The notes beneath the pieces are model-generated. The model did no database searches, had not been told where the DNA came from, and was given only the letters and a program-made list of their open reading frames with translations. DNA of 64,000 bases from Candidatus Flemingiibacterium sp. GTDB taxonomy: Bacteria; Bacillota; Clostridia; Oscillospirales; CAG-272. The first letter of the stretch is position 1, and every line of letters starts with the position of its first letter. This document shows positions 27,967-32,643 of the stretch, one piece after another. Made by a program: the position numbers and the translations under genes. The DNA lies in NCBI GenBank assembly GCA_045578725.1, contig JAZNKS010000052.1:8640-72639 (forward strand). The letters run 5' to 3'.

Positions 27967-29913
27967 TTATTCAACAACCTCGATGATATCGTGGAGGTCG
28001 ACGCGGCCAACCTCTACATAGGCGCGGCCGTCGCGGTATTCAAAGGGAAGCTCACGGTTGTCAGGACGGAGGATCAGCGCCTTCGGAGCCTTGTCAAGCG
28101 CGATGGAGAGCTTGATGTCAACGATCGGAGGGATGAAGTCCTCGGTACCGGTGGAAATGCTTCCGTGATTGCCGTTGGCATTGACCAGCTGGATGAAGAG
28201 CTTGCCGTCCTTCTTCAGATTGACGATTTCCAGCATACCGAGCGCGGATTCAATCTTGGTGGCAGGCGTATAGAGCTTGTCGCAGATGGTACGGATCAGA
28301 TCGCGGTGCGTGCACTGAACGCAGTCATAGTACTGACCGCCGAGATCGGCCGCCAGCGCGGTGACGGTACCTTTACCGAAGGGAATGATGACAGCGGCAG
28401 ATTCGTTTGCTGCACGGGGGGCGCCACCCATCTTGGCCACAACCTCGCCCTGTGCGGTGACATTGTGGGCATCGCGGAGCATACCGAATGCCTCGCCGTC
28501 AACGGTGTACCACATCCATGCCTCCTCGCGCTTTTCACTGTCAAGCGTGAGCGGAACGCCGGCTTTGGCGAATACATCGCAGACCTTGCGGCCGGCCAGC
28601 AGCAGATTGCCGCCGTTCTTTGCGTAGTCAAGAAGCTCGGCGATCATTTCCGGCTCCAGGCCCTCGAACAGTTCGGGGATGGCGATCAGCTTGTAATCGC
28701 TGCAATGGCCCTTCAGCGTATGCTCGCAGGCGATTTCGGTGGAATGACCGGTGTCGCAGAGAACGCAGGTCAGACCGGCGGCGCGGTTCATGCCGCAGCG
28801 GCTGAACAGGTTGCCGGATTCACGGTAGCGGTCGAAGGTGGAGAGCAGAACAACGGCCTCGTGCTCGGGATTGCCGTGTACGCAGTAATCCTGACGGGCG
28901 CGGACATAGTCGGCGACCGGCTTCATGCGGCGGATCTGATCAATACGGGGCGAGCCGTCGGGATACTGGGTGATGTAGTTCTGGAAGCCGCCGCCGACAG
29001 CCAGTACGGTTGCCGCTTCCTGCATGATCTGAATCGGATGCTTGGGAAGACCGCCGGGCTTGCCGTTCTGCATGGCGCGGAAGTTCCAGGCCATGAGATC
29101 CCATGTGCGGCCCTGCTGTGCGAGCGAACGGCCGGCATAGCGGGCGATATTGAAGGCATTCCAGGGCGAGAAGTCGCCGGACAGAAAGTCAACGCCGGCA
29201 CAGACTTCCTCGGGCATATGGTCCGAAAAGGCCCAGTTGGATGCGATCTGGAAGTTCGGGTACTTGGCATGAACCGTATCGGTGTAATGGCGGACATAGC
29301 GGCGGAAGAGCTCGCGGTTGAAGTCGCGGTATTCCACATAGTAAGGATCCTCACGCTTGACGGGAAGCTGACCGTTCAGCGAAATGCCGGTTTCCTTTTC
29401 GAAAGCCGCGATGGTGTCGGGATGATAGTCAAGGCAGGTGCCCCAGCATTCGCCATCGATCCAGATGCCGTCCACACCGTACTTGCCGGCCAGCTCCATC
29501 ATCTGCGGAATGAGCAGATTGTCGGCATAGCCGCCCATCGTGCGGGTTACGCTCTCGGAACGGGTACCGTCCGCATTGACAACGGCATCCTCCGGATGTT
29601 CCTTGCAGTAGCGGTTGTCGATGACACCGGAATAGTGCATATAGAGGGCAACGCCTTCCTCACGGGTAACGCGGCGCCACATGGCAAGCGGGTCGCCGAT
29701 GATTTCGGGCATGGCGTTTTCGCACGCGGTGGGATAGGAAGCCCAGCCGGGATGACCCTTGCAGTCGATCTGCAGAAAGTCGGGCCGGATGAGCTGGCAG
29801 ATTTCGCGGATCTCTTCCTCCTTCAGTGTCGCACCGACTGCCGGACGGCCCGGGTAGGGGCTGGCATGAAAGTCGAAGTGAAGGCCGAATACACTCTCGG
29901 AACGTTTTTTCAT
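27967..29913 (-). CDS. TIM-barrel glycoside-hydrolase-like protein (GH29/GH42-related; family uncertain) with a C-terminal GATase1-like/trimerisation-like domain
   Basis: I prefer the ATG at 29913, which follows GGAGGA (MKKRSESVFGLHFDFHASP...). ...AGKYGVDGIWIDGECWG... is typical of fucosidase-like barrels. The listed N-terminal extension is unnecessary. Confidence 0.55.
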   Translation of the reverse strand: MKKRSESVFGLHFDFHASPYPGRPAVGATLKEEEIREICQLIRPDFLQIDCKGHPGWASYPTACENAMPEIIGDPLAMWRRVTREEGVALYMHYSGVIDNRYCKEHPEDAVVNADGTRSESVTRTMGGYADNLLIPQMMELAGKYGVDGIWIDGECWGTCLDYHPDTIAAFEKETGISLNGQLPVKREDPYYVEYRDFNRELFRRYVRHYTDTVHAKYPNFQIASNWAFSDHMPEEVCAGVDFLSGDFSPWNAFNIARYAGRSLAQQGRTWDLMAWNFRAMQNGKPGGLPKHPIQIMQEAATVLAVGGGFQNYITQYPDGSPRIDQIRRMKPVADYVRARQDYCVHGNPEHEAVVLLSTFDRYRESGNLFSRCGMNRAAGLTCVLCDTGHSTEIACEHTLKGHCSDYKLIAIPELFEGLEPEMIAELLDYAKNGGNLLLAGRKVCDVFAKAGVPLTLDSEKREEAWMWYTVDGEAFGMLRDAHNVTAQGEVVAKMGGAPRAANESAAVIIPFGKGTVTALAADLGGQYYDCVQCTHRDLIRTICDKLYTPATKIESALGMLEIVNLKKDGKLFIQLVNANGNHGSISTGTEDFIPPIVDIKLSIALDKAPKALILRPDNRELPFEYRDGRAYVEVGRVDLHDIIEVVE

Positions 29914-29971: not shown

Positions 29972-30000
29972 ATTATAACATGGTTGCATCCGGAAGTCAA
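29972..30000 (-). promoter_or_regulatory. Sigma-A promoter for the glycosidase-like gene
   Basis: On the minus strand: TTGACT (30000-29995), a 17-nt spacer, then TGtTATAAT (29980-29972). Confidence 0.7.
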
Positions 30001-30032
30001 GAAAAGAATTTTTTATTTTTTTCAAAAAGGTA

Positions 30033-30061
30033 TTGACAATTCCTGCAGGGCGTGGTATAAT
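30033..30061 (+). promoter_or_regulatory. Perfect-consensus sigma-A promoter with an extended -10
   Basis: TTGACA (30033-30038), a 17-nt spacer, then TGgTATAAT (30053-30061). An A/T-rich UP-like tract lies upstream (30004-30030). Confidence 0.8.
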
Positions 30062-30067
30062 ATATAA

Positions 30068-30172
30068 CACGCCACAAGAGACGGCGTACAATTTCAGACC
30101 TTTGTTTTTATAAGTGAGCATTTTTCGACGGGAGATTTATGCCCATTTATAAAAACAAAGGTCTCTTTTTTC
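30068..30172 (+). ncRNA. Candidate ~105-nt small RNA, or 5' attenuator, of unknown class
   Basis: The predicted TSS is ~7 nt after the -10 element. 5' hairpin ACGCC/GGCGT (30070-30088). Then an 18-bp perfect stem AGACCTTTGTTTTTATAA (30096-30113) / TTATAAAAACAAAGGTCT (30147-30164), followed by CTTTTTT (30165-30171). The ends are predicted, not measured. Confidence 0.45.
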
Positions 30173-30406
30173 CGTTCCTTGACAATTTCATACCGCAAAT
30201 CCTGCCCGGCAGGCAGAACGACACGCACAGCAGCCTCATATTTTTCAAATACATGATTTTGAATGCTGTTTGGCACCGCCGCACGCGGTGCGGACATTCC
30301 GATGTCCATTTTTCGCAAATCCCTACAACTGAATACCTTATGTCAAAACGTGTCGTGACCCGCCGGGCGGGCAAAAAAACAACTATAAATTAAGGAGGAA
30401 AATCTT

Positions 30407-31867
30407 ATGCTGAATCAACTGATGCATGAGCAGAACCGCACGCGGACCGAAAACGGCGCCCTTGCCTGGCATTCCACGGGCGGATGCTGCCTTGATTTCT
30501 TTGCGGCTGCCGGCGCTGTCCGCGGTGCGGAGGATGAGCGGGTGCTGAATCTGTTTCTCCGTGCCTATGCGGAGAATCCCGACGATGCGATGAAGATCCT
30601 GTTTTATGCCCGGGATGTACGGGGCGGGCTTGGCGAGCGGCGGATTTTCCGCCTGATTCTGAGCCGGATGGCCTTTACGCATCCCGAAAGTGCGGCAAGA
30701 AATCTGGCTCACATTCCCGAGTACGGGCGGTGGGACGATATGCTGGCCGTGCTGGATACCCCCTGCGAAGCGGAGGCGGCCCGACTGATCGGCCGTCAGC
30801 TGGAGCGGGACAGACAGGCGATGGCTGCAGGAAAATCCGTATCCCTTTTAGCCAAGTGGCTGCCCTCGCTGAACACTTCGTCCTCGGCTACACGGGAGCA
30901 GGCCGGAAAGCTCCGCCGATTACTCGGCATGAACGAGCGGGAATACCGGCGGTGCCTGTCCTCGCTCCGAGCGGCATCAAAAGTGCTGGAGTGCGATCTC
31001 TCGCGCGGCGATTATGGCTTTACCTACGAAAAGCTGCCCTCCAAGGCGCTTCTTCAGTACCGGCGCGCCTTTCTTCGTCATGATAAGAAGCGCTATCGGA
31101 AGTATCTGGAGGATGTGCTCGCCGGCCGGGCTAAGGGAAAGGCCGCGGCGCTTTATCCCTATGAGTTGGTGCAGAGATGCATCGATGAGCGGGTACAGAC
31201 CGATGACGAAATCCATGCGCTGGATGCCGCATGGCGATCCCTGCCCGACTTCACCGACGGGCGGAATGCGCTGGCGGTGGTGGACGGCTCCGGCTCCATG
31301 TACTGGGGCGAAGGATCGCCGCGTCCGATTGATGTAGCGCTCTCGCTTGGACTCTATTTCGCCGAGCGGAACCGGGGGCACTTCCGCAATCATTTCATCA
31401 CCTTCTCCGAGTCGCCCCGGCTGGTGAAGGTGCAGGGCCGCAATCTGCGCGATCGGGTGCAGTACTGCATGAGCTACAACGAGGTTGCCAACACCGATCT
31501 CTACAATGTGTTCATGCTGATTCTGGTCACCGCAATCAAAAATCACCTGCCGCAGGAGGAGCTGCCCGAGCTGCTGTATATCCTGTCGGATATGGAATTC
31601 GACCGCGGTGTCACTCCGGATAAAACGGTTTATCAGGATGCAAAGGAAAAATTTGAGGAATACGGCTACCGTCTGCCGACGGTGGTATATTGGAATATCG
31701 CCAGCCGGAACGAGCAGTATCCGGTTATGGCAGACGAGAACGGAACGGCGCTGGTTTCCGGCGCCAGCCCGTCGGTCTTTTCCCTGATGATGGAACAGAA
31801 TATCACGCCGGATGCGCTGATGCGGCAGGTACTGGACAGCGACCGGTACCGCGCGATCTGCGCCTGA
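30407..31867 (+). CDS. DUF2828-like protein: helical N-terminal domain plus C-terminal vWA domain with intact MIDAS
   Basis: 486 aa. TAAGGAGG RBS lies 8 nt upstream. N-terminus MLNQLMHEQNRTRTENGALAWHSTGGCCLDFF...ILFYARDVRGGLGERR fits the DUF2828 pattern from memory. MIDAS residues: VVDGSGSM, ANTD, LSDMEFD. Confidence 0.75.
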   Translation: MLNQLMHEQNRTRTENGALAWHSTGGCCLDFFAAAGAVRGAEDERVLNLFLRAYAENPDDAMKILFYARDVRGGLGERRIFRLILSRMAFTHPESAARNLAHIPEYGRWDDMLAVLDTPCEAEAARLIGRQLERDRQAMAAGKSVSLLAKWLPSLNTSSSATREQAGKLRRLLGMNEREYRRCLSSLRAASKVLECDLSRGDYGFTYEKLPSKALLQYRRAFLRHDKKRYRKYLEDVLAGRAKGKAAALYPYELVQRCIDERVQTDDEIHALDAAWRSLPDFTDGRNALAVVDGSGSMYWGEGSPRPIDVALSLGLYFAERNRGHFRNHFITFSESPRLVKVQGRNLRDRVQYCMSYNEVANTDLYNVFMLILVTAIKNHLPQEELPELLYILSDMEFDRGVTPDKTVYQDAKEKFEEYGYRLPTVVYWNIASRNEQYPVMADENGTALVSGASPSVFSLMMEQNITPDALMRQVLDSDRYRAICA

Positions 31868-31884: not shown

Positions 31885-32586
31885 TTGACTTATGTAATGT
31901 CTGACCTCCACGGTCAGTATGAAAAATACGCGGCGATGCTGAAGACGATCCGCTTTTCGGATTCGGATGAGCTGTATGTGCTCGGCGATGTGGTGGATCG
32001 CGGCCCGTCGCCGATGAAGATTCTGACGGATATGAGTATGCGGCCCAATGTGTACCCGATCATGGGCAACCATGATTCGATCGCTCTGCAGATTCTTTCC
32101 CGGCTTCAGGTGGAGATTACCGAGGAGAATTACGCCACCCAGATCAATGCCGGGCTGATGCAGGCGATGCTTGCCTGGCAAATGGAGGGCGGCAATGAAA
32201 CGATCACCGATTTCCGCCGCCTTTCGCCGGACGATCGGGACTTTATCCTCGATTATCTCTCCGATTTTGCTCCCTATGAGGAATTAAAGGTGAAGGGAGA
32301 GCGCTTTCTGTTGGTTCACGGGGGGCTTGACAGCTTCGATCCCGCCCGCCCGATCGAGGATTATGCGCTCCATGAGCTGACCGATGCACGTGCCGATTAC
32401 ACCCGCCGCTATTTTGAGGATCGCTGGTTGGTGACCGGGCACACGCCGACCGCCTATATCGGCAGGGAATGGGCGGGGCGGATCTACCGTGGGAACGGGC
32501 ATATTGCCGTTGACAGCGGGGCCTGCTTCGGAAAGCCGCTCGGATGTATCCGTCTGGAGGATTTCCGGGAGTTTTATGCGGAATAA
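31885..32586 (+). CDS. PPP-family metallophosphoesterase (Ser/Thr-phosphatase / ApaH-like)
   Basis: Motifs MSDLHGQ, GDVVDRGP, GNHD, HGG and GHTP. I favour TTG 31885, which is 6 nt after AAAGGAGA. ATG 31897 is the alternative start. Confidence 0.85.
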   Translation: MTYVMSDLHGQYEKYAAMLKTIRFSDSDELYVLGDVVDRGPSPMKILTDMSMRPNVYPIMGNHDSIALQILSRLQVEITEENYATQINAGLMQAMLAWQMEGGNETITDFRRLSPDDRDFILDYLSDFAPYEELKVKGERFLLVHGGLDSFDPARPIEDYALHELTDARADYTRRYFEDRWLVTGHTPTAYIGREWAGRIYRGNGHIAVDSGACFGKPLGCIRLEDFREFYAE

Positions 32587-32591
32587 ACGAA

Positions 32592-32632
32592 CCGGGCTGT
32601 GTACGCGGAATGTACACAGCCCGGATTTTTTT
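32592..32632. terminator. Strong bidirectional terminator
   Basis: CCGGGCTGTGTAC (32592-32604) pairs with GTACACAGCCCGG (32612-32624), followed by ATTTTTTT. It lies between the phosphatase (+) and the GH38 gene (-). Confidence 0.85.
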
Positions 32633-32643
32633 ATGGATGGGAA

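Follow-up and report, generated by a model that had tools for sequence, protein, structure and literature searches.

The 64,000-nt window analysed here, from Candidatus Flemingiibacterium sp. (contig JAZNKS010000052.1, positions 8,640 to 72,639), carries a two-gene operon that lies between glycosidase genes on the other strand and is preceded by a long untranslated leader (Table 1). Our subject is this leader, and above all a long hairpin in it that abuts a run of uridines (U-run) and is followed by a box of the boxA type known from ribosomal RNA (rRNA) operons (rrn). The leader opens with an A/T-rich stretch similar to an UP element, a consensus promoter and a small hairpin at the 5' end of the transcript; the long hairpin, the U-run and the box come next, followed by a Y-RNA-like unit and by the genes for a DUF2828 protein and a metallophosphoesterase.

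Table 1. Coordinates of the leader and operon features in the window, and of related features on other contigs
Feature	Position	Strand	Basis
UP-like A/T-rich stretch AAGAATTTTTTATTTTTTTCAAAAAGGTA upstream of the -35 element	30004-30032	+	sequence
Promoter, sigma-70-type: TTGACA / 17-nt spacer / TGgTATAAT	30033-30061	+	12/12 match with TG extension
Predicted transcription start	~30068-30069	+	promoter position
Small 5'-terminal hairpin ACGCC/GGCGU, 9-nt loop	30069-30087	+	fold
Long hairpin, 21 contiguous bp and structured 27-nt apical part	30096-30164	+	fold
C + U6 tract directly 3' of the stem; termination or pause expected at ~30171-30173	30165-30172	+	sequence
boxA-type element GUUCCUUGACAAUUUCAUA (= GTTCCTTGACAATTTCATA), core GUUCCUUGACA at 30174-30184	30174-30192	+	sequence, context
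Diverged 'ACAGCAA-handle' (Y-RNA-like) unit with internal hairpins	30215-30360	+	alignment, fold
Closing stem of the unit, ACGACAC(G)/(C)GUGUCGU	30218-30225 with 30349-30356 (7-bp core 30218-30224 / 30350-30356)	+	
ACAGCAG box of the unit; ACAACUGAAUA box near the unit 3' end	30227-30233 (ACAGCAG)	+	
Predicted Ro60-fold protein, DUF2828 + DUF7788/vWA, PHROG 850 'RNA-binding protein'	30407-31867	+	Pfam; PHROGs (E = 1.5e-131)
Calcineurin-like metallophosphoesterase, lambda NinI / ApaH / PrpE-like	31885-32586	+	Pfam, NCBIfam, PHROG 246
Operon-end terminator, ordinary GC-rich, CCGGGCUGUGUAC...GUACACAGCCCGG then AU7	32593-32633	+	sequence
Arrays of ACAGCAA units in same-genus species	L013 5830-6450; L014 310-690; L015 8470-9850; L016; L017	minus for L016 and L017	
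Extra element of more distant homologues	L264 2105-2195; L265 2005-2085; L266 2030-2110; L267 1950-2010		sequence

The long hairpin and the start of the leader

The two arms of the long hairpin, AGACCUUUGUUUUUAUAAGUG (30096-30116) and CAUUUAUAAAAACAAAGGUCU (30144-30164), form 21 contiguous pairs. A preliminary description, made from the letters of this stretch, had counted 18 perfect pairs with about three more possible; the further apical stem it proposed, GCAU/AUGC (30118-21 with 30139-42), is present, and so is its CUUUUUU end (C + U6 at 30165-30171). The apical part contains a conserved motif, ACGGGAG...UAUGCCCAUUU, and the stem rests on a GC-rich base (AGACC/GGUCU). The predicted 105-nt RNA folds at -40.9 kcal/mol, compared with -15.3 +/- 2.9 kcal/mol for dinucleotide shuffles (z = -8.75; none out of 200 shuffles was as good). 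Hairpins with at least 21 contiguous pairs and a loop of at most 60 nt are rare in the 3.33-Mb genome (about six), and this one alone is followed by a T-run.

The hairpin has the anatomy of an intrinsic terminator: it is stable, its base is GC-rich and a U-rich tract follows immediately. At the same time its stem is much longer and more AU-rich than those of the ordinary terminators of the genome (e.g. the one at 32593-32633), and it is absent from our generic terminator scan because that scan allows loops of 3-8 nt only. It is single-copy in the genome, which ruled out a repeat or mobile-element identity. An Rfam search of the hairpin returned only sub-threshold chance matches to long-hairpin families (mir-2001, 32.7 bits with a cut-off of 74; rli48, 26.7 bits with a cut-off of 100).

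As the preliminary description had stated, the promoter upstream matches the consensus perfectly, with the -35 TTGACA at 30033-38 and the extended -10 TGgTATAAT at 30053-61. That such close matches are scarce here, as was also claimed, does not hold: eight perfect TTGACA-N17-TATAAT sites are found within the window, seven of them with TG, and 314 perfect TTGACA-N16-18-TATAAT promoters are found genome-wide (170 have a 17-nt spacer and the TG extension). The promoter is therefore not exceptional and, taken alone, no predictor of unusual abundance. All homologous leaders (see below) have a promoter at the equivalent position, and the TTTTCAAAAAnCTATTGACA context of the UP-like stretch is kept in L019-L023. 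Back to back with this promoter there is a divergent one (29972-30000, minus strand) with an 11/12 match (TTGACT, 17-nt spacer, TGnTATAAT), which serves the upstream glycosidase-like gene (27967-29913, minus strand).

The 5-bp hairpin described at the 5' end pairs as proposed, with its true arms one base leftward, at 30069-73 and 30083-87. The homologues have a small GC hairpin at the equivalent position with other sequences (CAAGC/GCUUG, ACUG/CAGU, CCUCCC/GGGAGG), and such small covarying 5'-terminal hairpins fit with a stable 5' end. The leader shares this feature with the rrn transcripts of B. subtilis, which have a small hairpin at the 5' end, ahead of boxA (PMC13753749).

Conservation and covariation of the hairpin

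The same layout was found at 10 other loci encoding the downstream protein (55-61% identical), one of them in the same genus. The leader homologues are those of G012 (same genus) and of metagenome contigs L019-L024 and L264-L267, and their elements come in a shared order: an UP-like A/T stretch, a consensus promoter, a small GC hairpin, a long hairpin, a U-run and a near-invariant box, then one or two ACAGCA(A/G) units closed by ACGNNNC/GNNNCGU, and a Shine-Dalgarno (SD) sequence with the gene. The long stems of the homologues differ in sequence (AGACCUUUGUUUUUAUAA; GAGACCUUUAUUUUUGUA; AAGACCUGUAUUUUGAAAUGGA; AGAGAGUUCUUUGAAGAG), each with at least 19 contiguous pairs, and an Rfam search of these leaders gave no match. 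In 12 out of 12 homologous copies a U-run of four to seven sits 0-1 nt past the stem; between the U-run and the boxA core there are 1-4 nt, depending on the homologue. The fixed position of the U-run, with the spacing to boxA varying, supports a terminator anatomy.

Covariation was counted in an alignment (A3) of the nine alignable sequences with 17 modelled pairs. Every pair is kept in 100% of the sequences; in four of them both sides have changed (UA/AU/GC; AU/GC; UA/GC; GC/AU), and one further pair varies between UA and UG, with UG in three out of nine sequences. None out of 500 shuffles reached the observed covariation score, and in controls in which the partner was slid, pairing collapses to 35-58%. 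RNAalifold recovered the same helix and left the following box unpaired. The preliminary description had asked whether the stem is maintained by compensatory changes in relatives; at the orthologous loci it is, in the four double-sided pairs. The long hairpin is under selection and is not a chance feature, and the G-U pairs together with the freely changing arm sequence place the constraint at the RNA rather than the DNA level. A pattern scan of the genome and metagenome contigs (GACGKGAN{14,24}AARYAAAGGTCT) was too degenerate, and the 5' arm was in none of the ~240 matches listed.

The boxA-type element, the operon and copies elsewhere

The box after the U-run, GYUCUUUGAMAAYUGAAUA in the homologous leaders, is their most conserved block, and by its sequence and context it is a boxA of the type found in rRNA operons. 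Its core, GTTCCTTGACA (30174-84), matches the published consensus GYTCTTTAANA (PMC5725501) at 9/11 positions, and homologues with GTTCTTTGAMA match at 10/11. The deviating positions, G8 and C5, recur in rrn spacers of the same order (GTTCCTTGAAA). For example, TTTTGTTCCTTGAAAACTGAACA (box GTTCCTTGAAAACTGAACA) is found in exactly three copies in one complete genome of the order, all in 16S-23S spacers, each 3' of tRNA-Ala, tRNA-Ile and a short hairpin and ~190 nt before the 23S gene; in the 16S leader of the same genome a hairpin is followed by UUGUACUUUGCAAAUUAAACA. The rrn hairpins of the order have 5-6 bp and no abutting U-run. In B. subtilis, the rrn boxA (GAUCUUUGAAA) comes after the small 5' hairpin and binds NusB (PMC13753749). 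In the window's own genome, a probable rrn leader (G000:C30:24800-24953) has an A/T-rich upstream stretch, a consensus promoter and then GGTCCTTGAAAATTGAACA (GGTCCTTGAAAATTGAACAGC, boxA); the contig ends shortly after, as is typical where an assembly breaks at an rrn operon. The 16S start motif was not found anywhere in the assembly.

The element thus stands where a boxA is expected, in a transcribed leader after a hairpin, predicted to be single-stranded and conserved. NusB is encoded in the genome, and binding of NusB/S10 with antitermination is the candidate function of the box. The RNA-binding domain of Rho (PF07497) was not found in the 95%-complete assembly, so that the usual anti-Rho reason for a boxA may not apply. 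We also considered a second promoter at the conserved TTGACA/TTGAAA after the U-run and rejected it: no homologue has a -10 element after it, and the TTGACA/TTGAAA is the boxA core. Nor is any other promoter for the downstream genes recognisable in the window or in the homologous leaders. Because no -10 follows TTGAMA in any homologue, expression of the Y-like RNA and of the two genes requires read-through.

The unit that follows the box has the handle feature ACGACACGC-ACAGCAG ... CGUGUCGU, and its fold (z = -3.4) includes the closing stem. It aligns with the one or two units of each homologous leader, with compensatory changes in the closing stem (ACGAUGC/GCAUCGU in relatives, ACGACAC/GUGUCGU in the window). 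Five species of the same genus have arrays of three to more than 10 units of the form AAAG-N6-ACAGCAA...N6'-CUUGU directly upstream of the DUF2828 gene; some of these units have tRNA-like inserts, tRNA-Phe/Leu/Val genes are interspersed, and an Rfam search of the arrays gave no family matches except tRNA. The 3' half of the extended boxA, ACAAYUGAAUA (30325-30336 in the window), is also found near the 3' end of each unit of the clade; in the units of the window and of L019-L266 it recurs just ahead of the closing strand. A sigma-54 site suggested by TGGCAC inside the ACAGCAG unit was rejected (wrong spacing, not conserved). More distant homologues have a conserved extra element, GCGGACAGUGYGCAU...GCGCGCCCACAGCUGAAACGGCGCAYAGCG, between boxA and the first ACAGCAA unit; the window lacks this element of L264-L267, and no Rfam family matches it.

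The first gene of the operon had been described as a vWA gene. The AlphaFold2 model of its product (pLDDT 89.9, pTM 0.90) indicates a protein with the Ro60 fold: the top Foldseek matches are all Ro60/TROVE structures over the full length, namely 1yvr (E = 2.8e-9, TM 0.62), 9l5y (Ro60 of phage phiLo) and 2nvo (Rsr of D. radiodurans), and a sequence-level search of the PDB gave no match. The DUF2828 protein is a singleton with nearest homologues ~60% identical. For the phosphoesterase gene, the likely start is TTG 31885 (233 amino acids, SD GAAAGGAG), and a 233-amino-acid homologue follows the DUF2828 gene in L020, L023 and L024; the longest open reading frame, from TTG 31690, would share 178 nt with the DUF2828 gene and is the less likely choice.

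The composite of hairpin, U-run and boxA is not confined to DUF2828 loci. A covariance model run over 401 genomes of the order located hairpin/U6/boxA in two further genomes (G039 and G237), with a stem unrelated to the one here: an integrative mobilizable element (AAA_25, Mob_Pre relaxase, serine recombinase) carries it in its long leader, downstream of a consensus promoter. At L290 2146-2457 (G039:C10) and at L291, a consensus promoter is followed by ~170 nt of leader, hairpin/U6/boxA and ~470 nt more of untranslated leader; the hairpin of this element has 21 contiguous pairs as read by eye. Of the other top-ranked weak matches of the model, those that were read are not homologues (L270, an AU-rich hairpin; L272, an ordinary terminator; L273, no hairpin). 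No DUF2828 gene lies within 1.5 kb of any of the 21 covariance-model loci. On phage contigs, exact matches to the U-run and boxA often have a terminator-like stem of 10-19 bp immediately before them, e.g. upstream of an 18-tRNA array (L349, 3270-11143) and, with a 19-bp stem, after a stop codon (L347, minus strand, ~2890-2970). Array-type DUF2828 loci of the same genus lack the composite, as do 31 DUF2828 loci in phages, so that it is dispensable for the DUF2828 protein. Copies linked to DUF2828 keep the apical motif ACGGGAG...UAUGYCCAUUU, which the mobile-element and phage copies lack.

Possible roles of the hairpin and relation to known systems

Judged by the order of its parts, the conserved leader appears to be built like that of an rRNA operon, with the hairpin and U-run as its second element. 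We put at about one half the probability that the hairpin is a promoter-proximal intrinsic terminator or pause site that frees a leader RNA of ~100 nt, and that the polymerases reading through load Nus factors at boxA. RNA polymerase would initiate at ~30068; the long stem would zip as its 3' arm emerges, and most polymerases would pause or terminate at the U-run, giving a ~100-nt RNA protected at its 5' and 3' ends. Polymerases that pass the U-run would transcribe boxA at once, and boxA would recruit NusB/S10, NusG and NusA, as in rRNA operons. The Nus-loaded complex would be processive and would serve as a folding chaperone over ~200 nt of structured untranslated RNA and on into the two genes, with the hairpin as a gate, or attenuator, by which operon output is set. 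The preliminary description had left the choice between a stand-alone small RNA (sRNA) and an attenuator. The attenuator fits better, because the only visible promoter lies upstream of the hairpin; the occurrence of the composite in a mobile element and in phages without a DUF2828 gene argues against an sRNA specific to this locus.

Several points weigh against the gate. A boxA placed after a terminator cannot aid passage through it, and the pairing of the two is unexplained by known rrn biology. The helix before boxA in rrn leaders (boxB) is no terminator, so the stem here could be no more than an enlarged boxB-like helix. With at least 19 perfect pairs, the stem exceeds what termination needs and is of classic RNase III substrate length. 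With no RNA-binding domain of Rho found in the 95%-complete genome, an anti-Rho role of boxA may not apply, and the conserved apical motif has no role in the gate model.

It is possible, if on the unlikely side, that the stem is instead a structural or processing helix, i.e. an oversized boxB-like helix and/or an RNase III site, which transcription passes efficiently. In the RNase III version, the site (a perfect duplex of at least 20 bp) would separate the 5' leader from the Y-like RNA and the mRNA, as in rRNA operons and in the early region of phage T7. The perfect contiguous pairs kept in every homologue, at least 19, are more than a terminator requires and match the length requirement of RNase III; the downstream genes lack a promoter of their own; and a hairpin just before boxA is the normal rrn layout in the same order and in B. 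subtilis (PMC13753749). Processing, however, has no need of a U-run held at 0-1 nt from the stem while the spacing to boxA shifts, nor do the true rrn hairpins of the order resemble this one in length or in an abutting U-run, and the GC-rich base of the stem is terminator-like.

Rather unlikely, in our view, is that the ~100-nt RNA is a functional stand-alone sRNA, which would either be a second, Y-RNA-like partner of the DUF2828 protein, with its long stem, its large conserved loop and oligo-U at the 3' end, or regulate this protein, e.g. as the ligand through which this protein controls read-through. The RNA is encoded directly upstream of a predicted Ro60-fold protein, as Y RNAs adjoin bacterial Ro60 (PMC4201824), hairpins protect both of its ends, and among copies of the composite the apical motif is confined to those linked to DUF2828. 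But the composite is also found without any DUF2828 gene, and DUF2828 loci of the array type and in phages do without it. The hairpin does not look like a Y RNA either: Rfam gave no match to Y RNA or YrlA (RF00019, RF02553), whether the gathering threshold was applied or E values up to 10 were allowed. Y RNAs have a terminal stem formed by their 5' and 3' ends, with a bulged helix that Ro binds; the stem here is perfect and local, is preceded by 28 nt and lacks such a bulged helix. Nor does it contain an ACAGCAA box, and it is the ACAGCAA units that are consistently linked to the DUF2828 protein. The resemblance of its arms to unit ends had suggested a junction relic of two such units; this idea was dropped after true homologues of the hairpin were found.

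A related scheme, which we consider improbable, would give the apical motif a role: the ~100-nt RNA would be freed as a stable sRNA and recognised through this motif by the DUF2828 protein or a partner, and binding would decide between a stop at the U-run and continuation to boxA, so that the ribonucleoprotein would autoregulate the supply of its RNA and protein by protein-dependent antitermination. There is very little to recommend a role of the inverted repeat as DNA (operator, cruciform or recombination site). The perfect palindrome is equally present in DNA, and the module resembles a cassette inserted between two convergent or divergent glycosidase genes; operators, however, conserve sequence, whereas here the arms vary freely with pairing kept, the UG of three sequences would be a mismatch in DNA, arms of ~20 bp set 27-47 bp apart are not operator-like, and the U-run and boxA are strand-specific, on the transcribed strand only. 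Least probable of all is a leader peptide (MPIYKNKGLFF...) translated down the 3' arm from the apical AUG 30139 (ribosome-binding site GGGAG, 4 nt before the ATG; 84-codon frame) to control the hairpin: L019 and L264 have frames of 12-13 codons from the equivalent ATG that end at the UGA inside boxA, but we reject it because the start is lost in four homologues (ATA in L020 and L024, GTT in L265 and L266; the near-identical L023 and L024 differ exactly at the start codon with the RNA pairing kept) and frames and stop positions differ between homologues, and the 84-amino-acid product has no family match and is not conserved.

The nearest known system is the antitermination site of rRNA operons in E. 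coli and B. subtilis (boxB hairpin, boxA, NusB/NusE, NusA, NusG), which likewise has a promoter, a hairpin, a single-stranded boxA and a long untranslated structured RNA (PMC5725501; PMC13753749); the same box is also present in rrn spacers of the order. The rrn boxB is short and no terminator, whereas here the stem has at least 21 bp, is perfect, abuts a U-run and is terminator-like; the cargo is a Y-like RNA and two protein genes instead of rRNA, and Nus binding is predicted. With leader attenuators, i.e. promoter-proximal intrinsic terminators, the locus shares a stable GC-based hairpin with a U-run between the only visible promoter and the genes, with a predicted ~100-nt product. It differs from them in that the alignment (RNAalifold) has no conserved alternative antiterminator or ligand aptamer, and in a stem that is longer and more AU-rich than those of the genome's ordinary terminators and is fused to boxA.

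The operons of bacterial Ro60 (Rsr), such as rsr-yrlBA-rtcBA of Salmonella and Yrn1 of D. radiodurans, likewise have small structured RNAs on the same transcript, adjoining the Ro60-fold gene (PMC4201824), and the gene of an RNA-end-processing enzyme adjacent. Here, in contrast, the protein is of the DUF2828 branch and not Pfam TROVE, the linked RNA is of the ACAGCAA-handle type and not YrlA, and a sigma-70-type promoter with boxA takes the place of sigma-54/RtcR regulation. Use of boxA outside rRNA for untranslated RNA is known for CRISPR arrays and the suhB leader, according to work cited in PMC13753749 and PMC5725501, and is paralleled by the phage-contig composite upstream of 18 tRNAs. These cases and the early region of phage T7, with its host promoters, boxA and RNase III site, have their elements in another order; at the locus described here, boxA comes after the hairpin. 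No description of a long terminator-like stem fused to boxA was found in the literature searched or in Rfam. The intrinsic terminator, the rrn boxA and the Ro60-type operon with adjacent small RNAs are known kinds; new are the combination of these parts, the covarying terminator-like stem fused to boxA, and the placement of this module before a Y-like RNA and Ro60-like operon.

Ro60 and its Y RNAs are a long-studied RNA-surveillance system whose mechanism is poorly understood, and the DUF2828 branch, common in gut Clostridia and phages, is uncharacterised. The locus described here is a compact version, with one promoter, one Y-like RNA, a Ro60-like protein and a phosphoesterase, and its expression appears to be wired like that of an rRNA operon, through boxA, behind a terminator-shaped gate. 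The leader of ~340 nt is clonable and suits asking whether a Firmicute boxA works outside rRNA, what a terminator does before a boxA and which RNA a Ro60-like protein binds. Since the composite recurs in a mobilizable element and before a phage tRNA array, it may serve Firmicutes generally as a signal at the entry to long non-coding transcripts. If the protein-dependent switch were true, a terminator fused to boxA would control elongation in two steps, a kind of switch not described before, which phages and mobile elements would have taken up as well, upstream of their arrays of non-coding RNA.

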